Notes: generated by a model not told the origin, from the sequence alone. A stretch of DNA of 64,000 nt from Nanobdellota archaeon (GCA_051819665.1 JBNJDG010000001.1:4369-68368), one strand, 5' to 3'. Counted from the first letter of the stretch, positions 2,254-48,723 are shown. Numbers and translations: made by a program.

Positions 2254-2720
2254 AGATAGAGAGGACCCTTATAATAATAAAGCCCGATGCTCTTAACAGA
2301 TCCCTTGTTGGGAAGGTCATAAGCAGGATCGAACAGAAAGGTCTGAAGATAATGGGGCTTAAGATGGCCCGTCTTGACGAGAAGACTCTGGATGAGCACT
2401 ATTCGCATCTTTCTGATAAGCCTTTCTTCAAAAGGCTCAAGGAATTCATGATGCACTCCCCTTCTATACTGTTAGCAGTGGAGGGGCTTGATGCAGTAAG
2501 AGTGGTAAGGCAGCTTGCGGGAGAGACCCATGGTGCCAAGGCTATGCCGGGTACTGTAAGAGGGGACTTTTCTATGAGCACCCAGTCTAATGTAATCCAT
2601 GCATCAGAATCAAAAGAAGTAGCAGAGGATGAGATTAAGAGATTTTTCAACGAAGATGAACTTTTTGTGTATGAGAGGGTCGATTTCGAGCTCTTATATG
2701 CGGATGACGAGAGAAGGTGA
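2250..2720 (+). CDS. ndk: nucleoside diphosphate kinase
   Basis: MKIERTLIIIKPDALNRSLVGKVISRIEQKGLKI...NVIHASES are NDK motifs. The start overlaps the L24e stop (atga). The rpl7ae-rps28e-rpl24e-ndk order is a conserved archaeal cluster. Confidence 0.9.
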   Translation: MKIERTLIIIKPDALNRSLVGKVISRIEQKGLKIMGLKMARLDEKTLDEHYSHLSDKPFFKRLKEFMMHSPSILLAVEGLDAVRVVRQLAGETHGAKAMPGTVRGDFSMSTQSNVIHASESKEVAEDEIKRFFNEDELFVYERVDFELLYADDERR

Positions 2721-2726
2721 TTATAA

Positions 2727-30038: not shown

Positions 30039-30199
30039 TCTGAAATTGCACCCTGAGGACAAGCTTCTTTGCATGCCCCGCAATCAATGCATTTATCCTG
30101 GTCTATCACAGCTACATCATCTTTCATGGTAATGGCTTCGACAGGGCATTTTTCCACACATGCACCGCATCCTATACATTTATCGCTGTCAACTTTCAT
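30035..30199 (-). CDS. 2x[4Fe-4S] ferredoxin
   Basis: CIGCGACVEKCP and CIDCGACKEACP motifs; 54-64 aa depending on start. Confidence 0.8.
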   Translation of the reverse strand: MKVDSDKCIGCGACVEKCPVEAITMKDDVAVIDQDKCIDCGACKEACPQGAISE

Positions 30200-33100: not shown

Positions 33101-33683
33101 TGACCATCTCCTTCAGCGTGTCATATTCTATAAGGTCTATCTTCTGTATCTCATGGGAAGTCCTGAAACCGTCGAAGAAATGGAGGAAAGGTATCCCTGA
33201 TTCGATTGAAGCCAGGTGGGCTATTGCAGCCATGTCCTGTGATTCCTGGACATTAGAGGAAGAGAGCATCCCGAATCCGGTGGACCTTGCAGCCATCACA
33301 TCCGAATGATCCGCATAGATGGATAATGCCTGTGCTGCCAGGCTTCTTGCAGCTATATGGAAAACGCCCGGGAGCATCTCTCCCGCTATCTTGTACATGT
33401 TAGGGAGCATGAGCAGAAGGCCCTGTGAATTCGTGAAAGTGGAAGTAAGTGCTCCTGCGCTCAATGAACCATGCACAGATCCTGAAGCTCCTGCTTCGGA
33501 CTGCATCTCCTGCACAGAAACTTTCTGTTCAAAGATGTTCTTCCTGTCTTTTGCTGACCATGTGTCCACAAGTTCACCCATGGGTGAAGCGGGGGTTATA
33601 GGGAATATCGCAGCGACCTCAGATAAAGCATATGCTACATGAGCTGCTGCTGTATTACCGTCAAAAGTAGCTTTTTTTACCAT
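30189..33683 (-). CDS. nifJ: pyruvate:ferredoxin (flavodoxin) oxidoreductase, single-polypeptide NifJ/PFOR type
   Basis: 1164 aa. The N-terminus MVKKATFDGNTAAAHVAYALSEVAAIFPITPASPMGE closely matches bacterial PFOR. Internal ferredoxin-like Cys clusters (CIQCGFCSMVCP, CVECGLCVNACP) and a TPP-binding region are present. Confidence 0.9.
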   Translation of the reverse strand: MVKKATFDGNTAAAHVAYALSEVAAIFPITPASPMGELVDTWSAKDRKNIFEQKVSVQEMQSEAGASGSVHGSLSAGALTSTFTNSQGLLLMLPNMYKIAGEMLPGVFHIAARSLAAQALSIYADHSDVMAARSTGFGMLSSSNVQESQDMAAIAHLASIESGIPFLHFFDGFRTSHEIQKIDLIEYDTLKEMVNMDSVRNFKEHALRPEKPYAKVGAEGPEIYFQGRETVNKYYLEAPKIVRKYMDLFYEKTGRKYEPFEYTGAEDAEKLIVAMGSSTDTIDETVRYLNGRGEKVGAIKVKLYRPFSAEDFIDKIPGSVKKVAVLDRTKEPGSPGEPLYLDVVSALKGRDIEILGGRYGLSSKEFTPSMVKAVYDHLENGFNGFTVGINDDVTNLSIPIKEEIDTEPESVYRCQFWGYGSDGTVSANKNAIKIIGENTDKEVQAYFSYDAKKSGGTTRSYLRISDDNIRSTYKPTKLDFIALHKPSYIGKYDLLRGLKENGIFLMNTKHSKDEAFKHLTKEMQETIRAKNIKFYVIDAFSIAEKAGLGNRINTVMQVAFFKLTNIIPIDKAVGYIKEFIEKQFRLKGKEIVEKNWKCVDLALEAVEKARTDTGEESAPVKEMVPEDADKFAKDIVKPSMLFEGDSIPVSKMTLDGSVPLSTTKLEKRGATKNVPEWKPDKCIQCGFCSMVCPHTAIRMKQIKKEDLRGAPEGFMTIQSKSNKELDFRVQCYPEDCVECGLCVNACPVNALEMRPVEKAREDGEDKRQEFFDKLPENVTEGTKEHTLKNTQFKQPMFEFPGACAGCGETPYIKTVTQLFGDRMIIANATGCSSIWGGMFPTIPYCQDKEGKGPAWANSLFEDNAEYGLGFRLAVNQMRGQLKMYLEKLLETGTTDDLSKAIENMLKVWDKTDDEARNAAAEVKKNLPEALECVYGESEPVLKKIDEMKDYLMNKSIWAVGGDGWAYDIGYGGLDHVLAQGKNINVLVLDTEVYSNTGGQASKATPLGASAKFASAGKETPKKNMGLMMMSYGNVYIASVAMGANKQQLLKALVEAENYDGPSIIIAYAPCIAHGCDMGHSIDEEKEAVESGYWPLYRYNPDLEKEGKDPLVWESPEPKKSFKDFLMKERRYKSLTIKAPERAKKLFDKAEKDAKRRLEDIKNES

Positions 33684-33722
33684 ATTATACCTCTTTTTTG
33701 TTATGCGGCGTCAATTTGGTTT

Positions 33723-34547
33723 TTATATTTTTCGTTGTTGTGATTTTTTCCTCTCATCCGTTATTATATTTCTCGGACAAGCGCTGACACATTTTCCGCA
33801 TTGTATGCATTTATCATAATCTATGACAGCCAGATTCTCCTTCACATGTATGGCATCTGCAGGACATGCCTTCTCACATGCTCTGCATGCTATGCATCCG
33901 ACCCTGCAAGTTTTTGTGACATCTCCTGCCTTATCCTTTGAAGAACATAGTACATGTATCTTCTTATTCCCGGGCACAAGTTCGAATAAACCTTTTGGAC
34001 ATGCTTTGACACATTCACCGCATGCAACGCATTTTTCTTTATCAACAACCGGCAGGCCGTTCTTGTCCAGGCTTAAGGCTCCGAACCTGCAGGCATCCAC
34101 ACAGTCCCCATACCCGAGGCATCCATATGGGCAGGATTTCGGTCCTCCCTGAAGCATTGACGCAGCCTTACAACTCCTGATCCCTTCATATTCAAACCTT
34201 CTGTCCGTCTCTCTGTCTCCTCCTGCACATTTCAATACTGCTACACGATCTTCCTTTTCACTCTTCCCGCCTCCTTTTCCGGTAATCTTTGATATTTTCT
34301 TTTTCACTTCTTCCTGGCCTGGTACACAAAGGTCAGCGGGTACTTTCTCGTTTTTCACCACTGCTTCTGCATATCCTCTGCATCCGCTATACCCGCATGC
34401 CCCGCAGTCAAGATGGGGGAGAATATCCAGGACCTTTTTCACTTCCGGATCCTCCCTTACACTGAACCTCTTAGAGGCGAAAGCCAGGAAGATCCCGAAT
34501 ACAAGTCCGAGTCCGCCGAGGACGATTATCGATTCAAGTATCATCAT
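33723..34547 (-). CDS. rnfB: Rnf complex subunit B (polyferredoxin type)
   Basis: N-terminal TM helix, CGACGYSGCRGYAEA motif, followed by several 4Fe-4S Cys clusters. Confidence 0.85.
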   Translation of the reverse strand: MMILESIIVLGGLGLVFGIFLAFASKRFSVREDPEVKKVLDILPHLDCGACGYSGCRGYAEAVVKNEKVPADLCVPGQEEVKKKISKITGKGGGKSEKEDRVAVLKCAGGDRETDRRFEYEGIRSCKAASMLQGGPKSCPYGCLGYGDCVDACRFGALSLDKNGLPVVDKEKCVACGECVKACPKGLFELVPGNKKIHVLCSSKDKAGDVTKTCRVGCIACRACEKACPADAIHVKENLAVIDYDKCIQCGKCVSACPRNIITDERKKSQQRKI

Positions 34548-35122
34548 ATCATTCCTGAAAAGGCTAAAAATGACAACGACATAAGGGCTGCGACAATGAA
34601 GGAGATAGGCATCCCCTCGAAAGCCTTTGGCACATCATTGAGTTCAAGCCTTTCTCTTATCCCTGACATTAGCATGAGTGCGAGGAGAAATCCTAAGCCT
34701 GCAGAGAACCCATAGACTGAGGTATGGAGGAAAGAATATTCCTTCTGGACATTCAGGAGGGCAACTCCCATCACTGCACAATTGGTGGTTATTAGTGGTA
34801 GGTATATCCCGAGCGTCCTGTAAAGTGCGGGGTTCACTTTCCGCAGGAAGATCTCGACGAATTGCACTAAGCTCGCAATAACTAGTATGAATACGATTAT
34901 CTTCAGGTATTCAAGTCCCAAAGGGAGCAGTACTATATTATACATCACCCAGGTAACTATCGATGCGAGTGTCATCACGAAAATCACTGCAAGACCCATT
35001 CCCAGAGCAGGTTTCGTCTTTTTCGATACGCCGAAGAAAGGGCAAAGCCCTAAAAACTTAGCTAATATGAAATTATTCACAAAGATGGCTCCCAGCATAA
35101 TGGATATGATCTCCTGAGTCAT
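34544..35122 (-). CDS. rnfA: Rnf complex subunit A
   Basis: NNFILAKFLGLCPFFGVS signature; 6-TM; 4-nt overlaps with neighbours. Confidence 0.85.
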   Translation of the reverse strand: MTQEIISIMLGAIFVNNFILAKFLGLCPFFGVSKKTKPALGMGLAVIFVMTLASIVTWVMYNIVLLPLGLEYLKIIVFILVIASLVQFVEIFLRKVNPALYRTLGIYLPLITTNCAVMGVALLNVQKEYSFLHTSVYGFSAGLGFLLALMLMSGIRERLELNDVPKAFEGMPISFIVAALMSLSFLAFSGMI

Positions 35123-35736
35123 TCTGTGGCCTCCTTCTTATTGCTTATATGCTTGAACAACCCCATCAACAGGCCCATGGTAAGAAGAGCTCCCGGAGGG
35201 AGTATGAAGATCATCGCTGGTTCCATGGGTATAGTGAAGAGTGTCATGTTGAATATCTCCAGGCTTCCTGTACCGAGGATCTCTCTGATTCCGCCTATAA
35301 GGAGGAGCGAGAATGTAAAGCCGATACCCATCCCTGCTGCATCAAGTATGGACTTGAAAGGCCTGTTCCTGGAGGCGAAAGCTTCGACCCTCCCCATGAT
35401 TATGCAGTTCGATACGATAAGAGGAACGTATATGCCCAGTGCTTCATTCAGGGAAGGGAAATATGCCTGCATAACAAGACTGACGATTGTTACGAATGAA
35501 GCTATGATCACTATGAAGACGGGGATCCTTACCCTTTTCGGGATAATGTTCCTGATGAATGATATTATTGTGCTCGAAAGGATAAGCACGAATGTTGCTG
35601 CCACGCCCATACCTATCGAATTATTAAGGCTCGTGGACACAGCGAGGAAAGGACATAGTCCCAGAACAAGGCAGAACACGGGATTCTTCCTGAATATCCC
35701 CTTTACAAGTTCCTGGAAATCACTCTTCTGTTCCAT
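35119..35736 (-). CDS. rnfE: Rnf complex subunit E
   Basis: LVLGLCPFLAVSTSLNNSIGMG signature. Confidence 0.85.
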   Translation of the reverse strand: MEQKSDFQELVKGIFRKNPVFCLVLGLCPFLAVSTSLNNSIGMGVAATFVLILSSTIISFIRNIIPKRVRIPVFIVIIASFVTIVSLVMQAYFPSLNEALGIYVPLIVSNCIIMGRVEAFASRNRPFKSILDAAGMGIGFTFSLLLIGGIREILGTGSLEIFNMTLFTIPMEPAMIFILPPGALLTMGLLMGLFKHISNKKEATE

Positions 35737-36223
35737 TCAATGCCTCCCTTACTCCTTCGGTCACTGCGGATGATGAGATTGTGGCTCCTGTGACAGCATC
35801 TATGCTTCCTCCTTCCTCTCTGAGCTTTATGTTTTTTCCCATTTTATTCTCGAATTGTTTAAGGAAGGTCCTGTTCTCTATCTTGGTTCCTAAACCGGGT
35901 GTCTCCTCCTGGTTGAGGACGTCCACTCCTGTCACCTTATTATCTTTGTCTATACCTACAATGAGCTCTATCTCTGATGAATATCCCTGGCTTTTCACCC
36001 TGACCACTTTTCCTATGGGCTCATCATCGAGGTAAGCTTCATAATGATCTCCTTTCTTCTCGAAATCATCTGCGTTCATAACCCTCTCCAGTGATCTGTC
36101 GAGCTTATCCTTCTGCCTCTCTTCAATCTTTTCAGAGGTGATATCTTTTGTGAGGCCGAGGGCACCGGCAGCTATTATGGTGACGATCATGAGTACAAGT
36201 CCTGTCCTTATTACCTCGTTCAT
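35720..36223 (-). CDS. rnfG: Rnf complex subunit G (FMN-binding)
   Basis: N-terminal TM anchor; FMN-attachment motif SIDAVTGATISS. Confidence 0.8.
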   Translation of the reverse strand: MNEVIRTGLVLMIVTIIAAGALGLTKDITSEKIEERQKDKLDRSLERVMNADDFEKKGDHYEAYLDDEPIGKVVRVKSQGYSSEIELIVGIDKDNKVTGVDVLNQEETPGLGTKIENRTFLKQFENKMGKNIKLREEGGSIDAVTGATISSSAVTEGVREALNGTEE

Positions 36224-37146
36224 TGTTTTGCACCGAAGGGTCTTCTTTTGGTGAATCTGTCTATAAGGGGCACTACCATGTTCATGAAGAGAATGGAGAA
36301 CATGACACCTTCAGGATACCCTGAGAATAGTCTCAGTATGATTGTCAGGGAACCGCATCCTGCTCCGAATATGAGCCTTCCTCTGGGAGTTATAGGGCTG
36401 GTGACATAATCAGTCGCCATGAAGAACGCGCCGATGAGAAGTCCTCCTGCAAGGATATGGAAGACAGGGTCCTGTCCCAGTATCAAGGAAAAGACGGCTG
36501 CTGTCCCGATGAAACCGAATGGGATCCGCCAGTCTATTATCCCCTTATAAAGGAGGAATGCACCGCCGATGAGTATTGCTATGGCTGATGTCTCCCCTAT
36601 GCATCCGCCGATATTGCCTATCAGGAGATTTTCGTAAGCTGCTTTTCCCCCTCCCTGTTTCAACATCCCGAGAGGTGTAGCGCCTGTGATGCCGTCAGGT
36701 GATACCCATTCGGTCATAATGCCTGACCAGGAGATCACAAGGAAAGCCCTTCCCACAAGGGCAGGGTTGAATATGTTCTGTCCCAGTCCCCCGAATACAT
36801 GTTTTCCAATGGATATAGAGACAATCGCTCCTATGAAGGGTATCCACCAGGGCACAGTCGGTGACAGTACGAGGGCCAGCAGAAGGCCCGTGAGTACAGC
36901 CGAACCATCTTGGATCGTGACTTTCTTACCTGCTAGTTTCTGTATCGTGAACTCGGTCAGTACAGCAGTCACTATCGAGACCGAGATTATTTTCACTGCG
37001 CTCATCCCGAAGAAGTATACAGATGCGAAAACAACAGGCAGAAGGGCCAGTACGACATACCACATTATGCTCCTTACGTTCTCTTTGCCCTTCATGTGAG
37101 GGTTATCGGAGATTACGGTCTTTCCTTCGTCCTTATTGTTTGTCAT
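36220..37146 (-). CDS. rnfD: Rnf complex subunit D
   Basis: NqrB/RnfD-like polytopic protein; FNPALVGRAF and DGITGATPL (flavinylation Thr) motifs. Confidence 0.85.
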   Translation of the reverse strand: MTNNKDEGKTVISDNPHMKGKENVRSIMWYVVLALLPVVFASVYFFGMSAVKIISVSIVTAVLTEFTIQKLAGKKVTIQDGSAVLTGLLLALVLSPTVPWWIPFIGAIVSISIGKHVFGGLGQNIFNPALVGRAFLVISWSGIMTEWVSPDGITGATPLGMLKQGGGKAAYENLLIGNIGGCIGETSAIAILIGGAFLLYKGIIDWRIPFGFIGTAAVFSLILGQDPVFHILAGGLLIGAFFMATDYVTSPITPRGRLIFGAGCGSLTIILRLFSGYPEGVMFSILFMNMVVPLIDRFTKRRPFGAKQ

Positions 37147-38434
37147 TTTCTGATATCTTCTCTTTAGTGAATCTCATCCATTGAACCAGGGGTATTTTGC
37201 TCGGGCAGACATATGAGCAGACCCCGCAGTTGTTGCAGTCCATCGCATGATAATCTTTCGCTTCCTCATATTTCCCTTTCCTTGCATTATGGATTATTGT
37301 TGTGGGCATGAGCCTCATGGGACAGGCCTCTATGCATCTTCCACATCTTATGCATTTCCTCTCTTCCTCTTGTGGAAGTCCATCCTGCGCCAGCAGACCG
37401 GAAGCACATTTTATTACGGGGAAATCATCGTCGGGCAGGGCATGTCCCATCATGGGTCCTCCGAAGATTATCTTGGCAGGATTGTCTGAATATCCTCCGC
37501 AGTATCTTATCACTTCCTTTGCAGGAGTGCCTATCCTGACCAGGAGATTCTTCGGTTCTTTTACGGCACCTGTTACAGTTACGATCCTCTCAATTAAGGG
37601 CTTGCCTTCATAAACTGCTTCGTATATAGCTTTAACTGTCTGGACATTCTGGACCACGCAACCGACATCGTGCGGCAGGCCTTTCCTGTTGGGTACTTCT
37701 CTTCCCGTAACCGAATATATTATGTTCTTCTCCGAACCTTGCGGATATCTTGTGCTTAAAGGCAGAATCTCTATGTTCTCCTTTCCTGACTTTTCCGTCA
37801 GGTTTGAGATGGCATCCTTCTTATCCTTCTCTATCGCGATGAAACTTCTCTCAGGCTCCAGGATCTTCTGCATGATCCTCAGGCCTTTTATGATCTTCTC
37901 TCCATGTTCAACCATCGTCCTGTGGTCTGAAGTTAGGTAAGGTTCGCATTCGGCACCATTGAGAATTATCGTGTCTATCTTCTTCCCTTCAGGCGGTGAC
38001 ATCTTAACATGAGTGGGGAATGATGCTCCACCCAGGCCGACTATTCCTGCATCCCTTATTATCTGTATTAGCTCTTTCTTCGTCAGCTTCTCCGGATCCT
38101 GCCTTCCGTTTATAGGTTTACCTTTCCTGTCTTTCCCGTCTGACCTTATCACTATGGTTTCTCCCTTGCCCGTAACAGGGTGATGCCTCTCTTCAACAGC
38201 CTCGACAGTTCCGGAGACGGGGGAATGGACAGGCGAGGTGACAGTCTTATCAGAATCAGCGATCTTCTCTCCGAGTTTTACCCTGTCACCTTTTTTTACC
38301 CTAGCTTTGCAGGGACATCCTATATGCTGGTTGAGGGGCAGGCTCACCATCTCAGGAGGGGGCATGACCTCTGTATTTCTATTTTTCGTGAGTTTATTCT
38401 GTTCTACACGGATCCCGCCAAAAAAGGATTTCAT
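37133..38434 (-). CDS. rnfC: Rnf complex subunit C
   Basis: GLGGASFPTHVKM (NADH/FMN-binding) and two 4Fe-4S motifs CIRCGRCIEACP / CNNCGVCSYVCP. Confidence 0.85.
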   Translation of the reverse strand: MKSFFGGIRVEQNKLTKNRNTEVMPPPEMVSLPLNQHIGCPCKARVKKGDRVKLGEKIADSDKTVTSPVHSPVSGTVEAVEERHHPVTGKGETIVIRSDGKDRKGKPINGRQDPEKLTKKELIQIIRDAGIVGLGGASFPTHVKMSPPEGKKIDTIILNGAECEPYLTSDHRTMVEHGEKIIKGLRIMQKILEPERSFIAIEKDKKDAISNLTEKSGKENIEILPLSTRYPQGSEKNIIYSVTGREVPNRKGLPHDVGCVVQNVQTVKAIYEAVYEGKPLIERIVTVTGAVKEPKNLLVRIGTPAKEVIRYCGGYSDNPAKIIFGGPMMGHALPDDDFPVIKCASGLLAQDGLPQEEERKCIRCGRCIEACPMRLMPTTIIHNARKGKYEEAKDYHAMDCNNCGVCSYVCPSKIPLVQWMRFTKEKISENDKQ

Positions 38435-38497
38435 AGATTAGAATCCTTGAATACCCATATAAAAAACTTTTTATATTCTTATTTCTCTATAAGGAAT
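38435..38497. promoter_or_regulatory. 63-bp divergent rnfC / apbE promoter region with near-palindromic double TATA (ATATAAAAAACTTTTTATAT)
   Basis: Symmetric A/T-rich element centred between the two divergent ATGs at 38434 and 38498. Confidence 0.4.
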
Positions 38498-39466
38498 ATG
38501 AGATATATCTATCTGTTTGCGGTTGTCTTTCTCCTTTTACTGGGTTGTTCTGCGACAGAGAAGACGGAAGAGACCAGGGAGCTTATGGGTACCGAGGTCA
38601 CTATCACTGTATACAGCGACAAGGGTGATTCAGATGCGGCTTCTTCTATAGATGATGCTTTCAACAGGATGGAAAGCCTGGAAGCTAAGCTCAGTGGGAC
38701 GGATAATAGCTCTGAAGTCTCCAGGCTCAATGAAAAAAAGACTGTGAGAGCTGGTGAGGACCTCCTTTATGTCATTAACCGGTCCTTGCGTTACAGCGAG
38801 CTTTCCGAAGGAGCTTTCGACATAACAGTACAACCTATACTGGACCTTTACAGCCACACTTTCAGCGAACTTGACAGGCCGCCCAATGCTTCTGAGATAA
38901 ATGAGACCCTGGAATATGTGGATTATCATGATATTTCTCTCGAAGGAGGGGATATAACTCTTGAGGAGAATATGAAGATAACTCTCGGTGGGATAGCTAA
39001 AGGTTATATAATCGATGAGGGTATTTCGGTGCTTAAGAGGGAAGGGATACGACATGCGCTGGTGAACGCAGGGGGTGACATAAGGGCAATAGGAGATAAG
39101 GGTTCTGATGACTGGCATATAGCTTTGAGGAATCCGGATGACAGTGATGATTATATTACCAGGCTGGATGTTGATAACAAGTCTGTAGCTACTTCCGGAA
39201 ATTATGAGAGATATTTTGATAAGGATAAGGAATACCATCATATCATAAACCCTAATACAGGTTATTCTTCAGATGGGATGATCTCTGTTACCATAATAAC
39301 TGATAAGGCGATTGATGCGGATGCTTTGTCAACCGTAGTCTTTGTCCTGGGCAGTGAGGAAGGTATGAGTATGGTAGAGGGCATTGGCGATGTTGAAGCC
39401 CTTATCATAAATGAGGACAGGGAAATTTTCAGGAGCACGGGTTTTGGGAGGTTCACTTCTGAGTAA
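38498..39466 (+). CDS. apbE: FAD:protein FMN transferase (ApbE family) lipoprotein
   Basis: It has a signal plus lipobox-like LLLLGCSAT. ApbE-family motifs are present (GGIAKGY, ...ATSGNYERYF, ...DALSTVVFVLG). It is divergent from the rnf operon, whose RnfG and RnfD are flavinylated by ApbE in characterized systems. Confidence 0.8.
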   Translation: MRYIYLFAVVFLLLLGCSATEKTEETRELMGTEVTITVYSDKGDSDAASSIDDAFNRMESLEAKLSGTDNSSEVSRLNEKKTVRAGEDLLYVINRSLRYSELSEGAFDITVQPILDLYSHTFSELDRPPNASEINETLEYVDYHDISLEGGDITLEENMKITLGGIAKGYIIDEGISVLKREGIRHALVNAGGDIRAIGDKGSDDWHIALRNPDDSDDYITRLDVDNKSVATSGNYERYFDKDKEYHHIINPNTGYSSDGMISVTIITDKAIDADALSTVVFVLGSEEGMSMVEGIGDVEALIINEDREIFRSTGFGRFTSE

Positions 39467-39508: not shown

Positions 39509-39715
39509 ATGACCATAGAAAAACTACAGGATGCAAAAAAACAGGTTATTGATTCTATAAAGGCAATACTTCAGGATCTCCAGGAGCAGAAAAAGGCGCT
39601 TGATGAGAAGGAGGAAAGCCTTAAAGAGTACGAAAAGAAGCTCCAGCAGAAAGAGAAGGATATAGAACAGGAGATGGAGAGTTTCTCTAATGAAGTGAAG
39701 AATCTTATCGGTTAG
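39509..39715 (+). CDS. small coiled-coil protein, hypothetical
   Basis: 68 aa, heptad-rich K/E/Q sequence; no family recognized. Confidence 0.3.
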   Translation: MTIEKLQDAKKQVIDSIKAILQDLQEQKKALDEKEESLKEYEKKLQQKEKDIEQEMESFSNEVKNLIG

Positions 39716-41946
39716 TTCTTTAACATCTCTCCTATTATGGTGCTTGCTATAGCATTGAAGATTATCATCACCAGGAGAGATATGGCAATGTAGAGTGCTG
39801 TCGATTTCACAAGGTTCTTCCCGAGCTCGTGCTCTTCATTGAGCTTATCCGAGCCGTGCTCGATACTGTTGGAGATGACGGTCAGCAGGTATGTTATCTG
39901 GATCACATATATCCCTACTATGATCTGTGAATAGTAAGTGGGGATACCGTCTCCGAATATATTAAGCAGGCCTTCCATGCCGCCCATTCCGCCTCCGCCC
40001 CCTGCGGCACCTTCTCCGCTTGTCAGTTGTGACATCTGGCTCTTGAGCCTTGAGAGGATGTAAGTCACCATCGAGGTTATGCCTATCACTATTCCGGAGA
40101 TCGCCGGTGTCATGAAGGATATCTGGGATTTCATCGAGCCGATTATGTCTCCCATAAGGTCTTTCAGCCTTTCATTGACCCTGTGGATCTCTTTTACGTA
40201 TCTTGCTATGTTAAGCAGTGCCTGTGCAGCAACCTGGGGCCCTTTCTTGATGCTTTCCACGAGGACTTTCATCGAACTCTTTATCAGGTTTGAGGGGTAG
40301 TTCTTTATAGCTCCCACTTTCGGATCGAATATGGCCTGCTTGATGGTCATACCAAGTCTTCTTACATTTGTGGTGGCGATGTTGAAGAAATTGCCTGTGA
40401 CTGTGCCTTTCATGACCTGGGCGACTTTGGTGATGGCTATCTCTCCGGGCAGGCCATCTCCAAGGCGGTTCCCGAGCTGGAACAGGGATGAACCGAACTG
40501 GGATTCTATCTTTTTAGAGTCTTCCCTTATCTTCATAAGCTTTCTCGATTTTAGCCTGAAGTAAAGGCCGAGACTCACTCCTATCGTAAGAGGCAGGAAC
40601 AGGCTGAATATCGCGGCCCCGAGACCATAAGGCCCTATGTATTCATCAGAGTTCCCCGAAGAAGGCTTTTTGTAACCAAGGAACTGGAAGGTCGCTTGAT
40701 CGTATTTTTCATCATCATAGTGCATCACCTTTATGCCTTCCTCCTGGAGATTGACTATATCGATATCGGTGACTGCGTGCATGAATATGGGGAAGAGGCT
40801 TAACATCAGGCCTATGATGCCTATTATTGTCGCAAGAACTACTGGCGAAAGGCTTATGTTCTGCCCTCCCAGTTTGAAATTGACCTTTTTGTATTTATCA
40901 TACTTTCCGCTCGACATGTCTGTATCTCCGTAACCGGTAGGCCTGCTGGCCAGGATGTTCTTCCCGTAATAATACACTATTAGCGGCAGGGCTATGTTGT
41001 AGAAGAAAGCAATGTAGATTGCCAGTTTGTTGGGTGGCAGATCCTCACTCGTCATGAAACTTGCAAGTAGAGGAAGCATCACAAGGCCCAGTATCGGGAG
41101 GATAACTCCCAGCATGTGAAGGGTTGTAACAGGGGAATGCAGATTATGTGCATAATGGAGCATCTTCTCATATGTCTGTTCGAGGATCACGTCGAGGGAT
41201 TTATCAAGCAGGTTTATTCTCCTGTCTTCAGAAGATTCTGCAAGAGAGGATTCTATAAGGTGCATAGCTTCCACGAATTCGTTGTTCCATTTCTTCCAGA
41301 ATTCAAGATAATCGTCCATCGATTCCTTGATCGTGTTGAACTTCTCCGTTTCCACATCCCAGATGACCTTTCTCATGTCCAGTGCCAGAGGCCCTGTGAG
41401 GTGATCCGAAGCGAAGATGAGTGCATTCTCAAGGTTGCTTGTGTGTCTCATATATGTGACCACATAAAATACTGAGAGCACCATCTCATTGCTTGCCTTG
41501 AGCCTCCAGTTGTTTGCCAGAAAACTTGGTAATTTGTTCATCAGCCCGTATACTGCAGCTCCTGCGATCATTGAGACGAATATCCCGAAGGTACCTATAT
41601 CTATGCCGATTATGGGGGGGATTATGACGCTCAGAACGAGACCTGCAAGTACAAGCGCTAAAGGGGCGAGTATCGCTACGCTCTTAAGGCCGGCAGGAGT
41701 GGCATTCAGGTGGCATGTGTTTATAGATTCCCGGAGATCTTTCGCTTCTTTTTCATCCGGTTTTATGTTCAGTATTTTCTCGCTCAGGTTAGCGAAATAT
41801 TCGTAACGGGAGAGATGGTTGGGGAGGATCTCCTTCCTGAATTGTTTATATTCTCTGTTCATCACTGTAGGGGTGGGCTGTGGATTATCTCCGAGTTCCT
41901 CTTTCAGCTTATCCATATACTTGTTCTTCAGGTCATCAGCTGACAT
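39712..41946 (-). CDS. type IV pilus/archaellum-type assembly platform membrane protein (FlaJ/TadC/PilC-like), unusually long (744 aa)
   Basis: Two repeated units, each a cytoplasmic helical domain followed by TM triplets (T2SSF-like). It lies directly downstream of the secretion ATPase, with the stop and start adjacent. Confidence 0.6.
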   Translation of the reverse strand: MSADDLKNKYMDKLKEELGDNPQPTPTVMNREYKQFRKEILPNHLSRYEYFANLSEKILNIKPDEKEAKDLRESINTCHLNATPAGLKSVAILAPLALVLAGLVLSVIIPPIIGIDIGTFGIFVSMIAGAAVYGLMNKLPSFLANNWRLKASNEMVLSVFYVVTYMRHTSNLENALIFASDHLTGPLALDMRKVIWDVETEKFNTIKESMDDYLEFWKKWNNEFVEAMHLIESSLAESSEDRRINLLDKSLDVILEQTYEKMLHYAHNLHSPVTTLHMLGVILPILGLVMLPLLASFMTSEDLPPNKLAIYIAFFYNIALPLIVYYYGKNILASRPTGYGDTDMSSGKYDKYKKVNFKLGGQNISLSPVVLATIIGIIGLMLSLFPIFMHAVTDIDIVNLQEEGIKVMHYDDEKYDQATFQFLGYKKPSSGNSDEYIGPYGLGAAIFSLFLPLTIGVSLGLYFRLKSRKLMKIREDSKKIESQFGSSLFQLGNRLGDGLPGEIAITKVAQVMKGTVTGNFFNIATTNVRRLGMTIKQAIFDPKVGAIKNYPSNLIKSSMKVLVESIKKGPQVAAQALLNIARYVKEIHRVNERLKDLMGDIIGSMKSQISFMTPAISGIVIGITSMVTYILSRLKSQMSQLTSGEGAAGGGGGMGGMEGLLNIFGDGIPTYYSQIIVGIYVIQITYLLTVISNSIEHGSDKLNEEHELGKNLVKSTALYIAISLLVMIIFNAIASTIIGEMLKN

Positions 41947-44199
41947 CTATCCACCTCTTTTTTTGACCTCTTCAAAAAACCACTCTTCCCATCTCCTGTA
42001 TATCTCATCCTGATCCATCCAGCCTTTGTCATTGGATACTTCTTCACTTATATTGTGGAACATATCATTGCATTTTATCACGAAAGGTGCTTCGAGCATG
42101 TCATCATCCTTGTTCTTGATGGCTGTCTCTGCAATCTTCCCTTTGATCTTCCCCCTTAATTCTATATTGTTCCAGACAGCATCCCAGTTACCGGCGAATT
42201 CTTTTATGTTCCCTGCTATTGATTTCAATATCTCGGATTCTCCGTTTATTATAGCATCTGTCGGCTCTACCTTATCTGTTTTGGAGTTGTATTTCATCAG
42301 GTCCACGAAACCGTTCTCCCTTGATGGGTCTTCACTCCAGTCTTTCCTCACTTCAGTGATCTGGGTTATCCTCCTGTGCTTGTGAAGCCCGTCTGCAGAC
42401 TTTATGGGGGTGGCGATTATTATGATGTCCGTCGCCTTGAAAGAGGTGGTTGGTACACCGATATCATTCACGACCCTGTCGAAGATACCGTATGGGCTGT
42501 CGCCGTGGATCGTGCCTGCTACAACATTTGCAGAAGCGCCCACTCTCATGGCTTCATAAAGTGCCTTTGCTTCTTTACTCCTTACCTCTCCGACAATGAG
42601 TGAAGAATCACCTAGTCTCAGGGTGGCCCTTATTCCGTCGCTTGCATCCATTTCAGAAGAGCCTTTCTGCAATGCGGAAGCGACTTTCATCGGCTGTATA
42701 TTGAAACCGAGCTTTCTCATCTCCTCTCCCGGAAGCTCCCTCGTGTCTTCTACAGTTATTATCCTGTATCTTCTCATTATCTCGACCAGGAGAGAGGTAA
42801 GGAAACTTGATTTTCCGCTTGACCTTGTACCTGCGACGAGCATGGTCTTGGTCCCGTCAATGAGAAAGCTCAATAATCCTGCGGCTATGGGTGAGATCAT
42901 GTTGAATTTGATGAACAGGGGCAAAGTCCATGGTTTGCTCCTGTGTCTTCGGAAGGAGAAAGCCAGGCCTGTCGGGTCAAGCGGAGGACCAATGAGTGAT
43001 ATCCTTGTGGATGCACCGGGAAGGTCAAGTTCAGTATCGAGAAGGGGGTTAGCTTCATCCAGGGGTCTTCCCGAAATCATCCTCAGCTTGGATGCCCAGC
43101 TTTCCGCTTCCGTCCTGGTAGGTATGATGTTTGTCTTACAGTCATCATAATCTCCGTGTACAATGAAGATCGGGACCTGTCCTAGCGGGCTGTTGACGGA
43201 GATATCCTGCACTTTCTCGTCCTGGAGGAGAACTTCCACAAGGCCGAATCCGACGGTGTACCTGACCAGGATGCCTGTAAGGTGTTCCACCTCTTTTTTC
43301 AATAGCCTTATCCCTTTGTATTGTGAAAGCTCCTGGATCAGATCTTTGCCCACATCGAAGAAGATCTTCCTCATCCTCTGCGGGTTGACGAATTCCTCTT
43401 TACTTGGTTTATGCTCGGACATGATCTTCCTTGCATTATCCAGCAGCTCGTACTTCTCCTCATCAAGTTTGAACTCGGGGGGCATCATATGGTAGATGTA
43501 CTGCACGGAGTCCGGTAACTTGAAGATGGTCACTTCGACCTCTCCGGAGACGGTGTAGCTGTCGAGTTCCTCTCCGTTTTCCGGATATGAGGCCATTAAT
43601 TTGGTGAACATGAAATCCGGCTTGATGACAGGGTGGAAGATTCTCCTGTAGATCTCCCTTGAGCCAGCTTCATGGCCTGCCAGATAAGGTTTTGCTACAC
43701 TGACCAGTCTTGTATTGTCAAGTTGTTCGATCACATAAGTAAGAAGGGAGACATATTTGTTGATGGAGTTGAGAGCACGCTGGTTGTTGGTGTTCTCTTT
43801 ATTCATGTTCTCTCTTCTCAATATCCTCGTTAACTCGGAATAAGCACCCAGTGGATCGTTCTTGAGGGTATGGTAAAGAAGTTTCTTGATCTCTGTATAA
43901 AGCTCTTCTGAACTGTTCAGATGATAATAGCTTAAGGTATTCTTGTCCTTTACTATATTTGTGAAGACAGATCCTATCTCATGGAGGAGCATGGTCTGGC
44001 TGTAATCATATTCGTAATCTCTTTTATCATACAATAATATCTTTGTGGTGTCCCTGTTTTCTATCAGTTGATCTATCACAGTGGACATGCACAAAGCAGA
44101 ATCTTCAATGGATGGTGGAACTCCTGCTAATTCGCAATTCACCCTGAGAATGACTTCTTCTCCCTCTCTGATTACTGTGAACTTATCTTCTTCTTCCAT
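41947..44199 (-). CDS. type II/IV secretion system ATPase (FlaI/PilB/GspE family), 750 aa with N-terminal extension
   Basis: Walker A (VAGTRSSGKSSFLTSLLVEI) is present, followed by ITVEDTRELP. Asp-box/His-box-like regions are present. The N-terminal ~250 aa have no recognized domain. Confidence 0.8.
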   Translation of the reverse strand: MEEEDKFTVIREGEEVILRVNCELAGVPPSIEDSALCMSTVIDQLIENRDTTKILLYDKRDYEYDYSQTMLLHEIGSVFTNIVKDKNTLSYYHLNSSEELYTEIKKLLYHTLKNDPLGAYSELTRILRRENMNKENTNNQRALNSINKYVSLLTYVIEQLDNTRLVSVAKPYLAGHEAGSREIYRRIFHPVIKPDFMFTKLMASYPENGEELDSYTVSGEVEVTIFKLPDSVQYIYHMMPPEFKLDEEKYELLDNARKIMSEHKPSKEEFVNPQRMRKIFFDVGKDLIQELSQYKGIRLLKKEVEHLTGILVRYTVGFGLVEVLLQDEKVQDISVNSPLGQVPIFIVHGDYDDCKTNIIPTRTEAESWASKLRMISGRPLDEANPLLDTELDLPGASTRISLIGPPLDPTGLAFSFRRHRSKPWTLPLFIKFNMISPIAAGLLSFLIDGTKTMLVAGTRSSGKSSFLTSLLVEIMRRYRIITVEDTRELPGEEMRKLGFNIQPMKVASALQKGSSEMDASDGIRATLRLGDSSLIVGEVRSKEAKALYEAMRVGASANVVAGTIHGDSPYGIFDRVVNDIGVPTTSFKATDIIIIATPIKSADGLHKHRRITQITEVRKDWSEDPSRENGFVDLMKYNSKTDKVEPTDAIINGESEILKSIAGNIKEFAGNWDAVWNNIELRGKIKGKIAETAIKNKDDDMLEAPFVIKCNDMFHNISEEVSNDKGWMDQDEIYRRWEEWFFEEVKKRGG

Positions 44200-44320
44200 T
44201 TTCTACCTCTTTTTTCAATGAATCATTCACATATTCGCTGATCGTCATGTCTTTCATGACACAAATATACTTGAGTTTCTTATGTTTTTCCTCGTCGATC
44301 TCTATGTTTATTCTTCCCAT
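44183..44320 (-). CDS. ribbon-helix-helix (CopG-like) small DNA-binding protein, copy 2 (45 aa)
   Basis: MGRINIEIDEEKHKKLKYICVMKDMTISEYVNDSLKKEV has the RHH beta-strand + two-helix pattern. It overlaps the ATPase start. It is below the ORF-track cutoff. Confidence 0.5.
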   Translation of the reverse strand: MGRINIEIDEEKHKKLKYICVMKDMTISEYVNDSLKKEVENGRRR

Positions 44321-44451
44321 TCTTTCTCTTTTTTTAATCTTTTCTCGATTATGCTGTTAATGTATTCTGTCATAGTCTTGCCATTAATCGCAGAATGAGC
44401 TTTGATCTTCCTGTGTATGGAATCATCGATCTCGATGTTTATTCTTGGCAT
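44308..44451 (-). CDS. ribbon-helix-helix (CopG-like) small DNA-binding protein, copy 1 (47 aa)
   Basis: MPRINIEIDDSIHRKIKAHSAINGKTMTEYINSIIEKRL; tandem paralogue of the next gene; below the ORF-track cutoff. Confidence 0.5.
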   Translation of the reverse strand: MPRINIEIDDSIHRKIKAHSAINGKTMTEYINSIIEKRLKKEKEWEE

Positions 44452-44628
44452 TTTAAAAAATGGTCCCTGGTCAGTCTGTTGGGGGGTTTTAGAATGAATC
44501 CAGGGACCGTTGATTATTTAACTTATTTAGTTAAGTTAATTAAGTTAGTTAATTTATATAAGTTTTTCGCTTTTCACTCACAAAGAACAACATAACATTA
44601 TTATAACAAACCTTATTTTTCTGATAAT

Positions 44629-45129
44629 ATGGTGGGAGATTCCGTAAGCGGGCAGCAGGAGCAGCAGAATCAACAGACTCAGGGGGGTAACGGTGCTCAG
44701 CAGAAGCAGTCGGGAAGCAAGACGATAACCTTCGGAGCCCCGAAAAAGCCCAAAGGGCCTTCTCCGGAAGTCAAGAAATTGACTTCTGAAGTGGGTGAAG
44801 TCGGCAGGAAGGTGAGGATACTTGAGGAGAGGTATTCGAACATAAGGAGGAAATCCCAGCTTACAGAGCATAACATGCTCACTATTCAGAAGAACCTCAA
44901 TAAAGAAGTGAAACAGGTAAACAATGAGATAAAGGAGGTCCAGAAGACAGCCAAGGAGCTGAAGGAGAAGATGGACCAGATCCTGAGGGAGATAAATAAT
45001 TTTGCCAGTTCGGATGAAGTCAAGGCCCTTGATGCCTATGTCAATTTTTGGAATCCTGTCGAGTTTATGACGAGGAAGGAAGCTGAAAAGCTTGTGAGGG
45101 ACATCATTGAGGAGAATAGAAAGATTTAA
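44629..45129 (+). CDS. hypothetical protein: Q/G-rich low-complexity N-terminus + coiled-coil C-terminal half
   Basis: 166 aa; QQEQQNQQTQGGNGAQQKQ then heptad-like region; TATA AATTTATATAAG upstream. Confidence 0.45.
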   Translation: MVGDSVSGQQEQQNQQTQGGNGAQQKQSGSKTITFGAPKKPKGPSPEVKKLTSEVGEVGRKVRILEERYSNIRRKSQLTEHNMLTIQKNLNKEVKQVNNEIKEVQKTAKELKEKMDQILREINNFASSDEVKALDAYVNFWNPVEFMTRKEAEKLVRDIIEENRKI

Positions 45130-45295: not shown

Positions 45296-45958
45296 ATGCA
45301 GCAGAATGGCATGACCAATTATCAGATAGTTGAATATCTCCAGAGACAGGGCTATCAGCAGAATGAGATTTATGAGGCCATGAATCAGGCTTCAGTAAAG
45401 GGCAGTGTAGAGAATCCACAGGGTGAGCAGATGGCTTCACCTCAATATGCGGAGGATCAGGGTGCTTATGGAGCTCCTCCTGGCGGTCAGCCGGCACCTC
45501 CCGGCGGGCAAGCCCCTCCTGGCGGACAGGCTCCCGGTGGACAAGCTCCCGGACAGATGCCGCCGGATATGAACGGTGGAGTATCCAAGGAGGAGATCGA
45601 GAAGATAGCCGAATCTATCATCGAGGAGAAATGGAACCAGATAACCAAACAGTTCACCCAGCTTTCCGACTGGCGTGAAAAATCGGAAGAGAGGCTTACC
45701 AGGATAGAACAGCAGTTCCAGGATCTCAAGAAGAATTTTGATTCCCTTCATGACTCTCTTCTCGGGAAGGTGAATGAGTATGATCAGAATATCGTTCATC
45801 TCGGGAGTGAGATAAAGGCGATGGAGAAGGTATTCCAGAAGATCCTCCCCTCACTGACTGAGAACGTGAGTGAATTATCCAAGATTACCAAGAATATGAA
45901 AGGGGAAAAGGATAAGGATAAAAATCAGGGGAATACTGGCAGTCAGGATTACAGCTAA
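45296..45958 (+). CDS. hypothetical protein with small N-terminal domain, (P)PGGQA pentapeptide repeats and C-terminal coiled coil; N-terminus possibly longer (see findings)
   Basis: 220 aa; PPGGQPAPPGGQAPPGGQAPGGQAPG repeat; coiled-coil from about residue 100. Confidence 0.45.
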   Translation: MQQNGMTNYQIVEYLQRQGYQQNEIYEAMNQASVKGSVENPQGEQMASPQYAEDQGAYGAPPGGQPAPPGGQAPPGGQAPGGQAPGQMPPDMNGGVSKEEIEKIAESIIEEKWNQITKQFTQLSDWREKSEERLTRIEQQFQDLKKNFDSLHDSLLGKVNEYDQNIVHLGSEIKAMEKVFQKILPSLTENVSELSKITKNMKGEKDKDKNQGNTGSQDYS

Positions 45959-46943: not shown

Positions 46944-47549
46944 TTATTGTTCTGTCCTTGTGAGCTGTGTTATTGCCAGGACAGAGATTATCATGATGAG
47001 TATGAATCCCAGCATCCTGGGGTGATATATGCTCGACTTTACGTTCTTATCGAAATCTTCTGTGTCTGTCTCCGGTGTTGATTCCGGCGAGGAATCCCCT
47101 GTTCCGGCATTACCCGGCTCATTAGAGAACTTGTATTGTGTTGTGTTCTCTGTAGCTTCAAGCTCCTGCTGTCCGTATACGTCAGCTATTGAACTCACAA
47201 GTATGATGAGTCCTAAGATTGCGACGGTCCAACCGATTATCTTCTTATTCTGGAGCTTATCGATTATCATCGAATCGCTGGCTCCGAGTGATTTGTATGT
47301 TATCACCAGAAGGAGCATGAAAATCCCCAGCATGATAAGCCAGGGAATCATGTTCATTATCACCTGGCTCATGCCTTCAGACATCATGATGATTATTCCT
47401 ATCACGAGAGCTATTATGGCATTTATGCTCTTGTTCTCACCTGTGATCTTGGTCTTGGTGAGAAGCCCGTAGACGATAGCAAAAACTATGAGCAGGATAA
47501 AAATAGGGGTTAACCCTTCCAAAAAGCCGAGGTCTAAAAAGCTTGCCAT
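46944..47549 (-). CDS. membrane protein, paralogue 3 of a tandem triplet (shared FxxLGxxDVxLPFLLxFxIxYAxLxKTKxxG motif), with acidic S/T/E-rich loop
   Basis: LDLGFLEGLTPIFILLIVFAIVYGLLTKTKITGENKS shared N-terminal block; 4 predicted TM. Confidence 0.5.
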   Translation of the reverse strand: MASFLDLGFLEGLTPIFILLIVFAIVYGLLTKTKITGENKSINAIIALVIGIIIMMSEGMSQVIMNMIPWLIMLGIFMLLLVITYKSLGASDSMIIDKLQNKKIIGWTVAILGLIILVSSIADVYGQQELEATENTTQYKFSNEPGNAGTGDSSPESTPETDTEDFDKNVKSSIYHPRMLGFILIMIISVLAITQLTRTEQ

Positions 47550-47550
47550 T

Positions 47551-48129
47551 TTACTCTTTCTTGAACATATTTGATAGTCCTTTCACGAAACCGTCTCCTT
47601 TGGACTGTCCTTCATCTTTGGTTACGAACCATAGCACTAGGCCGAATACCAATACCATCACCAGTACGGCCATGGTGTCTGTGCCGAATATACCTTCAAG
47701 CCATGACCATCCTTCCCACCAGTTTGCAGATGCACCGAAGATATAGAACACTGCCAGCACAGAAAGCAGGACAATCGTTCCGGTTACAGTATTTCCCTGT
47801 ACCCAGTCTGATTCTGCTCCCCATAGTCCTACCAGTAGCAGGACCATTATGATAGCAACAACCACTATGGATACCGTGGGGAGAGCGTTATGGAGTATCT
47901 CTATCGGGTCATAGCCCATCGGATAATTCCCTGTTACATGGGGGATTACGGTGGCCATGGCCATTACGAAAGCGAGAATGATGTTGTAGCTTTTCTTCTC
48001 TCCGAGAATCTTCGTCTTCTGGAAAACTGCATAGACTATAGTGAAAATCAAGAGAAACGGAAGAAGCACGTCCGAAAAACCCCAGTTTTCCAGGGCCATG
48101 AAAAAGTCTCTCCAGTTGTAATATGTCAT
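47551..48129 (-). CDS. membrane protein, paralogue 2 of tandem triplet
   Basis: ENWGFSDVLLPFLLIFTIVYAVFQKTKILGEKKS shared block; W-rich extracytoplasmic loop. Confidence 0.5.
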   Translation of the reverse strand: MTYYNWRDFFMALENWGFSDVLLPFLLIFTIVYAVFQKTKILGEKKSYNIILAFVMAMATVIPHVTGNYPMGYDPIEILHNALPTVSIVVVAIIMVLLLVGLWGAESDWVQGNTVTGTIVLLSVLAVFYIFGASANWWEGWSWLEGIFGTDTMAVLVMVLVFGLVLWFVTKDEGQSKGDGFVKGLSNMFKKE

Positions 48130-48141
48130 TTTTTATCCTCC

Positions 48142-48723
48142 TCATTTATTTGAATTGTTTTTGTTCCCTGAACTATCATTGGTGATGTAACCTATGATCC
48201 CGAGAGTGATGAGCACCATCACGATTGATCCTACAGCGTTGCCGGTCCAGTGGTCGACCAGCCAGTACCAGGCTGTTTCCAGCCAATTACTATCTCCACC
48301 TGCAGTCGGTATAGCGTAAAGCGTTATCAATACAATTGATATGAAGGCAATTACCATGAAAGTGACTCTCCATTTGCCTTCGAGTATCACATCTTCTCCT
48401 TCCCTGAAGAATGTTCCTATCAATACAAGGAACATCACTATCATTATAAGGACAAGCACTATATTTGCCAGTGCCTGATTGATCGTCTGTACAAGCTGTT
48501 TGGACGCTATGACGAGGAAGCCTGCCACGAAAGCTACCATCGCGTTGATGTTCTTCCTCGTTACCTGCTGGTCGCCTTCTCCTATCGTGCCGAAGACTTT
48601 CGTTTTCTCGAGGATAGCATACATTATTGAGAATACAAGCAGGAAAGGGAGTATAACATCATAAACACCCAGTTTCCCGAAAAATGTAATAATACCTCTG
48701 AGCATTGATTCTTCGGCCATCAC
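48142..48723 (-). CDS. membrane protein, paralogue 1 of tandem triplet
   Basis: GKLGVYDVILPFLLVFSIMYAILEKTKVFGTIGEG shared block; similar topology and W-rich loop. Confidence 0.5.
   Translation of the reverse strand: MMAEESMLRGIITFFGKLGVYDVILPFLLVFSIMYAILEKTKVFGTIGEGDQQVTRKNINAMVAFVAGFLVIASKQLVQTINQALANIVLVLIMIVMFLVLIGTFFREGEDVILEGKWRVTFMVIAFISIVLITLYAIPTAGGDSNWLETAWYWLVDHWTGNAVGSIVMVLITLGIIGYITNDSSGNKNNSNK

Follow-up and report, generated by a model that had tools for sequence, protein, structure and literature searches.

Tandem ribbon–helix–helix genes at the head of a probable type IV filament-class motor and platform operon in Woesearchaeota

Overview of the locus

We analysed a 64,000-nucleotide stretch of DNA (hereafter named the window) from a Nanobdellota archaeon (GCA_051819665.1, JBNJDG010000001.1:4369-68368), with the focus on four open reading frames (ORFs) of its minus strand. 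These encode two small ribbon–helix–helix (RHH) proteins, RHH1 (44308-44451; 47 aa) and RHH2 (44183-44320; 45 aa), a GspE/FlaI/TadA-type ATPase (41947-44199; 750 aa) and a polytopic membrane protein with a divergent GspF/PilC/TadC/FlaJ platform fold (39712-41946; 744 aa). Taken together, our results make it probable that RHH1 and RHH2 are autoregulators of a type IV filament-class motor/platform core which is characteristic of Woesearchaeota, and that the four genes form a single translationally coupled operon read from 44451 to 39712. The locus is a lineage-wide, lineage-specific variant of a known machine and not a one-off oddity. In the literature, we found no description of the RHH–ATPase arrangement, of its operators or of the platform assignment.

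A preliminary description of this DNA had placed all four ORFs correctly on the minus strand, and the peptides that it quoted agree with the sequence. RHH1 heads the operon and shares 13 nt with RHH2, which in turn overlaps the start of the ATPase gene, as had been noticed, by 17 nt; the gap between the ATPase and platform genes is zero. The same overlaps recur in relatives (13 nt for RHH1/RHH2, and 11 or 17 nt for RHH2/ATPase), and it is their retention that supports the operon structure. Housekeeping genes lie nearby, for PFOR, AspRS, HerA and ApbE and for a complete Rnf cluster; they place the locus in the chromosome of a Woesearchaeota-type DPANN archaeon, in a non-mobile context.

The ATPase belongs to the type IV filament superfamily

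Judged by its sequence, the ATPase is a member of the type IV filament superfamily, which comprises type IV pili (T4P), Tad and the archaellum. A T2SSE domain (PF00437) was detected at residues 416-596 with 53.8 bits against a Pfam cutoff of 24.9, and the best NCBIfam models were FlaI (132.9 bits) and TadA. A profile of 24 ATPase homologues retrieved afGspE (2OAP, E 1e-32), CpaF (E 7e-28) and FlaI structures from the PDB; all of them align with the ATPase only from residue ~221 on, and for the FlaI structures 4II7 and 4IHQ the alignment spans the ATPase core. Residues ~215-660 thus make up a FlaI-like N-terminal domain plus a catalytic C-terminal domain. The catalytic motifs line up with those of afGspE and are invariant in the 24 homologues, namely the Walker A motif (G457-K463; G457/T458/R459/G462/K463), the Asp box (E484/D485/T486/E488), Walker B (G537/E538/V539/R540) and the His box (T563/I564/H565).

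As FlaI is the best NCBIfam match, and homologues carry the JGI and KEGG-style name 'archaeal flagellar protein FlaI', we considered whether the pair is the archaellum motor FlaI/FlaJ (ArlI/ArlJ). This is highly improbable: the 132.9 bits obtained on the FlaI equivalog NF058587 fall far under its cutoff of 550, neither the window nor the related loci contain FlaH, FlaF, FlaG or archaellin genes (arlB, arlF, arlG, arlH, arlJ), and FlaI and FlaJ resemble the pair neither in the N-terminal domain of the ATPase nor in the sequence of the platform.

More than 6000 database proteins match the ATPase. The 120 best matches, all from bins assigned to Woesearchaeota or Nanoarchaeota or from bins that are evidently mislabelled, have lengths of 722-816 aa and share 61-78% identity with the query, of which they cover 95-100%; among the homologues examined the identity is 57-78% across the lineage. 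The length of 750 aa, which had been called oversized, is therefore real but normal for a very large Woesearchaeota family, with thousands of homologues that are 60-78% identical and measure 740-816 aa.

Likewise, the extension at the N-terminus is real, although shorter than the ~250 aa first proposed: it covers ~200-215 aa, as the FlaI model and afGspE align from residue ~215-221. This N-terminal domain (residues 1-~215; nt ~43555-44199, minus strand) is family-specific. Its structure model had a pLDDT (predicted local distance difference test score) of 86.7, and comparison with PDB libraries gave no specific fold match. A profile of the domain matched 387 clusters among 1.84 billion representatives; in nearly all of the matches listed the domain is N-terminal, and the full-length ones are ATPase-sized proteins of the same type. 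The N-terminus thus belongs to an existing subfamily of the same length, which databases label T2SS/T4P ATPase or FlaI, an outcome that the preliminary description had listed as one that would refute it.

Cysteine residues occupy three CxxC-like positions of this domain in 16-50% of 141 family members. Relatives have up to three such pairs, at positions 22/25 and 142/145 of the window protein and in an insertion that follows position 96, and this pattern suggests metal binding. The window ATPase retains C22 and C37 only and is missing the insertion after 96; its N-terminal domain is a degenerate version of the one bearing CxxC pairs in some relatives. We propose that the domain may serve as a docking or regulatory module.

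Inteins tend to reside in highly conserved, important proteins. Three long ATPase alleles from outside the window (P0370, P0386 and P0389; 1264-1783 aa) contain one or two within their catalytic core, and these inteins have LAGLIDADG homing-endonuclease domains. An ATPase–platform fusion was rejected as the explanation of these lengths, since the alleles are intein-bearing.

A highly divergent platform protein

On the evidence of its fold, the 744-aa protein is a highly divergent GspF/PilC/TadC/FlaJ-fold platform of the type IV filament superfamily. Hydropathy analysis divided it into nine hydrophobic segments and a pair of soluble helical domains, each of ~145 aa (residues 136-278 and 464-608), which is the architecture of GspF/PilC/TadC/FlaJ platform proteins, and fold comparison with PDB libraries showed the cytoplasmic domain to be a helical bundle with the GspF/PilC fold. 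At the sequence level, T2SSF (PF00482) was touched by only four of the 28 platform homologues, with a best E value of 0.04, and a profile search of the PDB came back empty. The initial call of a FlaJ/TadC-like platform was thus right, its basis being fold and synteny and not sequence membership.

The platform gene lies downstream of the ATPase gene in 66 of the 80 genome loci and 66 of the 80 metagenome loci, with ~50% identity and a median intergenic gap of 62 nt (145 loci). Every named homologue is called 'hypothetical'. The homologues measure 716-773 aa, so that the 744 aa of the window protein, a real length that had also been described as oversized, is the family norm.

RHH1 and RHH2 are genuine, anciently duplicated genes

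In Pfam searches, RHH1 matched ParD with 31.3 bits (cutoff 27.3) and ParG with 23.2 bits (cutoff 21.4), and RHH2 also scored above the ParG gathering threshold (21.4 bits); further matches of the two ORFs were to the TacA, FitA and RelB-like antitoxin RHH families, with a weak one to Omega_Repress. RHH1 could be aligned to the folded part, an RHH domain, of the ParG (1P94) and ParD (2AN7) structures. RHH1 and RHH2 have the N-terminal β-strand motif RINIEI in common and differ mainly in their C-terminal tails. Their identity, put at about 45% before, was measured as 43% over 37 aa, and the proposal that they are tandem duplicates was borne out, as they are genuine paralogues forming two orthologous groups, with the motifs ...HKKAKINS...EKLKKEKxKWEE for RHH1 and ...HKKLK..C...EKNGR for RHH2. 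Because both groups are found in relatives, the duplication is older than these lineages. RHH1 orthologues were identified in eight loci (L081, L084, L086, L167, L168, L170, L005 and L007). Where dS was unsaturated, dN/dS was 0.09-0.32 for RHH1 and 0.05-0.26 for RHH2. Both ORFs are real genes under purifying selection. In the lineages with the closest ATPases (P0002-P0007; 73-79% identity), the pair is present with identical overlaps and was called by independent pipelines.

The two ORFs, which fall below the 60-aa cutoff of the ORF track in the preliminary description, are annotated: NCBI names both of them 'plasmid partition protein ParG' (MGM5484299.1 and MGM5484298.1). An identity as the partition protein was rejected: no ParA/ParF-like gene is present in the operon or among the neighbours, and the RHH1 fold begins at residue 2 and that of ParG aligns from its residue 35, so that the N-terminal tail is missing. 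Given the lack of a ParF partner and of the tail, and the chromosomal operon context, the name is probably a family-level misnomer.

The matches to ParD, TacA, FitA and RelB-like antitoxin families and to ParG also raise the question of whether the ORFs are antitoxins, or remnants of toxin–antitoxin or plasmid-partition modules that lie upstream of the ATPase by chance. The probability of this is close to negligible. In type-1 loci, as we call those with the tandem pair, RHH1 is always followed by the second RHH gene and then by the ATPase gene, with conserved overlaps; no toxin or ParA/ParF gene follows, and the consistent lack of an adjacent toxin gene argues against the antitoxin role suggested in the preliminary description. 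Furthermore, the context is one of chromosomal housekeeping genes, the two orthologous groups have been maintained under purifying selection over several lineages, and a stand-alone RHH homologue in L046 has no toxin neighbour. PADLOC gave no match, and a defence-system reading was dropped for want of such support.

Two types of RHH gene at the same position

Among the 80 species-level genome loci, only L005 and L007 carry a tandem type-1 pair. A metagenome scan with the single ATPase sequence gave 93 pattern matches and no relatives; when it was repeated with the ATPase alignment, only one close relative was recovered, and further type-1 loci came from exact-protein look-ups. In a neighbour-joining tree of the ATPases, the type-1 loci form two small clades, the window's subclade and one other. 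Conservation of the RHH pair with the ATPase thus holds for these two clades and is not family-wide.

A different, single small ORF occupies the same position in 32 of the 80 genome loci and 29 of the 74 informative metagenome loci (~40%). This type-2 RHH has the consensus MKKPISATIDEELIKWIEKEL.DKKKYRNKSHLIEIALELLKK and gave subthreshold matches to the CopG-type RHH_1 and ParD_antitoxin families; one more copy is located 1.3 kb upstream of the ATPase gene in L078. Comparison of the type-1 and type-2 profiles by hhalign gave no meaningful alignment, and orthology of the two types therefore cannot be shown. In roughly half of the related loci no RHH gene is present, and a divergent gene for a coiled-coil protein abuts the ATPase gene. 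Hidden Markov models (HMMs) of both RHH types matched small ORFs nearly always directly upstream of the ATPase gene, with only two matches elsewhere (L046 and L078) in ~1 Mb, and in a further 80 loci no match lay away from that position. Two sequence families, with a different DNA motif for each, as described below, have thus independently kept an RHH gene upstream of the ATPase.

Each RHH type is paired with its own repeat motif

RHH1 is separated by 177 bp from the divergent gene that starts at 44629. This shared intergenic region contains four AACTTA/TAAGTT hexamers (44520-44564, no strand assigned), a candidate operator. The array starts on a TATA-like box, TTATATAA, at 44554-44561 and continues downstream, with an extended repeat unit of A-nn-TAACTTA-nn-TA and a period of roughly 9 bp. 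All nine independent type-1 loci have two to five copies of the hexamer in the 200 nt upstream of RHH1. The background mean is 0.12 per 200 nt, at least three copies being found in only 0.24% of 8054 windows of that kind, and the array at the RHH1 promoter is the sole such cluster in the 64-kb window. Upstream AACTTA clusters were seen in one of the 88 RHH-less loci and one of the 54 type-2 loci. The type-2 loci in turn contain AATATATT (36/54) and TATAAAATAT (28/54), each of which occurs in one of the 88 RHH-less loci, and the type-2 motif has a median position of -46 from the RHH start.

This pairing of each RHH type with its own repeat motif supports the view that they are dedicated autoregulators, and it speaks against antitoxins and against ParG-type partition proteins. 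The earlier suggestion of dedicated regulators gains from it a cognate repeat array at the promoter of the RHH genes themselves, as a proposal at the level of sequence. RHH1 and RHH2, as homodimers or as a heterodimer, are predicted to bind the ~9-bp-periodic TAACTTA array, and both may read the same half-site. Such binding would lead to autorepression of the RHH1–RHH2–ATPase–platform operon and possibly also to repression of the divergently transcribed coiled-coil genes, with which the operon has this intergenic region in common. TAACTTA would then be a new motif recognized by small RHH proteins. In summary, the RHH pair is genuine and probably has a regulatory role.

ParG stimulates ParF through a flexible N-terminal tail. 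The RHH proteins might by analogy be mainly partners of the ATPase, as adaptors or modulators, and not mainly transcription factors. Translational coupling with the ATPase implies co-production, ParG is among the best family and structure matches and is the NCBI name, and the N-terminal domain of the ATPase is otherwise unexplained. However, we regard this role as very unlikely, as the minimal RHH fold starts at residue 2 without the flexible tail of ParG, the ATPase is of the GspE and not the ParA class, half of the family works without any RHH protein, and the presence of cognate repeats at the promoters is in keeping with DNA binding.

A candidate hairpin in the RNA leader

Between the operator array and the RHH1 ATG, the minus strand has the potential to form a hairpin (44462-44508), with the stem GGTCCCTGG/CCAGGGACC and a loop that exposes CCCCCAA, followed by a T-run. 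Its minimum free energy is -20.8 kcal/mol (z = -3.7). An equivalent stable hairpin was folded by all seven loci of the window's subclade, including L081, L086, L167, L168 and L170 and, more weakly, L084, with z between -2.6 and -4.95 in six of the seven. The stems differ in sequence, and the loop keeps CCCCCAA in six loci and has CGCCAA in L084. The hairpin was found in none of the 42 type-2 loci and in two of the 105 RHH-less loci, was absent from L005 and L007, and had no family match in Rfam. Speculatively, it may add a second, post-initiation point of control.

Conserved neighbours and other genes of the window

Two divergent genes on the plus strand encode soluble coiled-coil proteins, one of 166 aa (44629-45129), with homologues in 117 of the ~170 related loci, and p220, of 220 aa (45296-45958), with homologues in 86. 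p220 begins with a small helical domain that is UBA-like, followed by a linker rich in Pro, Gln and Gly, and its C-terminal coiled coil is conserved (…VGTEIKAMEKVFQKVLP…). Searches of Pfam and the PDB returned only coiled-coil noise for both proteins, plus a faint UBA-like match for the p220 profile. Their part in the system is deduced from synteny only.

Beyond them, on the minus strand, lie three tandem paralogous genes for multi-pass membrane proteins of ~190-200 aa (46944-47549, 47551-48129 and 48142-48723; hereafter named the trio). The members have the N-terminal motif G[IL][YT]DV[VL]LPF[LI]L[VI]FT...K[TS]K.LG in common, and a complete trio is situated near the ATPase gene in 56 related loci. 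The trio had no Pfam match, and all of its homologues are named 'hypothetical'.

On the other side, a plus-strand ORF for a 68-aa coiled-coil protein (39509-39715) runs towards the platform gene and overlaps its 3′ end by 4 nt; no homologue was found in any of the related loci. The region 30189-39466 contains the gene for PFOR (1164 aa), a gene that is likely to encode ApbE, and the complete Rnf cluster, in which an RnfB-like Fe-S protein and two membrane subunits of the Rnf-Nqr type are encoded. From their sequences, the genes at 35720-38434 were read as RnfG, RnfD and RnfC. PFOR, Rnf and ApbE amount to a fairly rich energy-metabolism set for a DPANN genome.

A filament-assembling or another membrane machine

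The ATPase, by homology, and its partner, by fold, are identified as the motor in the cytoplasm and the inner-membrane platform of a machine of the type IV filament class. Such a machine would most likely assemble pilus-like filaments, the pilins being encoded at other places in the genome. T4P-like genes and pili have been reported in DPANN generally (PMC11606122, PMC6142677, PMC9938205). The preliminary description had remarked that no pilin gene is obvious next to the pair, and a regular-expression scan agreed, with no ORF in the 64-kb window having a class III signal peptide. When the same kind of scan was applied to the ~170 related loci, nearly all matches were internal starts within trio or platform genes. 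In one locus, L052, a pilin-like gene was identified between the ATPase and platform genes (2486-3301, plus strand), with the class III signal peptide MRKA/QIPQQLMTYIIAAVVAMIVLFLGY (MRKAQIPQQLMTYIIAAVVAMIVLFLGY...). The label of this contig, 'Armatimonadota bacterium', is probably a binning error.

Several observations weigh against an RHH-controlled filament operon as we propose it. No pilin or prepilin peptidase gene was found in the 64-kb window, and a pilin-like gene stands beside the pair in only one of the 145 related loci. Filament assembly is deduced from family membership only, and the high conservation (57-78% identity) together with the conserved non-pilin neighbours could point away from a classical pilus. 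The platform protein of the window has no Pfam and no NCBIfam match, and the internal duplication typical of GspF was not detectable between its halves by hhalign. The RHH genes are accessory to the system, about half of the loci being without any, and part of the type-2 motif, which is AT-rich, could be TATA sequence of the promoter. For the hairpin, RNAalifold on a MAFFT alignment, in which the stems were not aligned, gave no consensus; a covariance model made from three relatives matched the window hairpin in the right place with 20 bits and an E value of 0.22 and missed L081, L084 and L167. As the hairpin comes from seven sequences of a single subclade, with weak statistical support, it is only a lead.

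Some of these points would suit a different machine. The ATPase, platform, trio and coiled-coil proteins may constitute a DPANN-specific non-pilus membrane machine that recruited a FlaI-like ATPase as its motor, and which might export or import material or remodel the contact between the cell and its host. In 144 of the 145 loci no pilin gene lies beside the pair, the sequences are very highly identical across the lineage, some ATPase alleles are intein-bearing, the N-terminal domain is unique, and neither the syntenic coiled-coil genes nor the trio resembles a known T4P component. Makarova et al. raised the same possibility for pilin-less archaeal ATPase/membrane protein pairs (PMC4858521), and the archaeal ATPase clade with extra, variable Cys-rich N-terminal domains that is described there includes nanoarchaea lacking cognate pilins (PMC4858521). 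However, archaeal pilin genes are often unlinked from ATPase/TadC operons (PMC4858521), strong expression of archaellin or pilin-type genes has been reported in Woesearchaeota (PMC11606122), L052 has its pilin-like gene inside the operon, and no positive evidence points to any alternative substrate. We judge a non-pilus machine, the main rival of our reading, to be unlikely. Its fuller form, in which the trio, the two coiled-coil proteins, the ATPase and the platform make up an unrecognized DPANN cell-envelope machine, not a conventional pilus, that is RHH-gated in some lineages and has an RNA leader in the window's subclade, is somewhat less likely again. If true, such an envelope machine could build a contact or transfer structure to host cells.

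Significance

The system bears on the question of how DPANN archaea, which need contact with other cells, attach to them and exchange material. The ATPase/platform pair is among the most conserved envelope-related gene pairs in Woesearchaeota. The GspF/PilC fold assigned to the partner of the ATPase, a defined gene set and two RHH families with their motifs make the system experimentally approachable, and the TAACTTA and AATATATT motifs can be used for operator assays and regulon searches. Our analysis also corrects two names that are probably mistaken, 'ParG' as given to the RHH genes and 'FlaI' as given to the ATPase.

Comparison with known systems

The closest parallels of the filament-class motor and platform are the archaeal T4P pairs, such as PilB/PilC of Haloferax and AapE/AapF and UpsE/UpsF of the Sulfolobales, together with afGspE (2OAP). 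As in the window, these pairs have a gene for an ATPase of the GspE/FlaI class and hexameric type, directly followed by a gene for a polytopic TadC/FlaJ-like platform protein. In contrast, the window ATPase has an extra N-terminal domain of ~200 aa without a structural relative, its platform is undetectable by T2SSF models, and its conserved neighbours are the coiled-coil proteins and the trio instead of pilins. The best plasmid-borne ATPase relatives of haloarchaea align over residues 296-669 only, with 35% identity. Subclade 4F of T4P (Makarova, Koonin and Albers 2016, PMC4858521) may be a further parallel: in the window family, ~20-45% of the members have cysteine residues at CxxC-like positions of the N-terminal domain, and coiled-coil genes are conserved neighbours. 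The window ATPase, however, has lost most of these cysteine residues.

The archaellum pair FlaI/FlaJ is of the same superfamily, with the best NCBIfam model and an aligned core. The window protein differs from it in a score far under the equivalog cutoff, in the additional N-terminal domain and in the absence of the accessory genes. Among the bacterial systems, which include Tad/Flp (CpaF/TadA with TadB/TadC), GspE/GspF and PilB/PilC, CpaF ranks second among the PDB relatives of the ATPase, and GspF/PilC share their fold with the cytoplasmic domain of the platform. Unlike Tad/Flp, the window system is archaeal, has a single large platform protein in place of the TadB and TadC pair, and contains no secretin, TadZ or Flp pilin genes.

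Finally, the regulatory part of the locus is comparable with small RHH autorepressors, namely CopG, the omega repressor, ParG, Arc/Mnt and MetJ, and aCcr1 and F55 of SSV1 in archaea. As in the window, the RHH proteins are of ~45 aa and are encoded by the first genes of the unit that they are proposed to control, and the promoter is overlapped by short direct and inverted repeats. What distinguishes the window from these autorepressors is that two paralogues are kept in tandem and that the operon which they are proposed to control encodes a motor of the T4P class and belongs to a DPANN archaeon.

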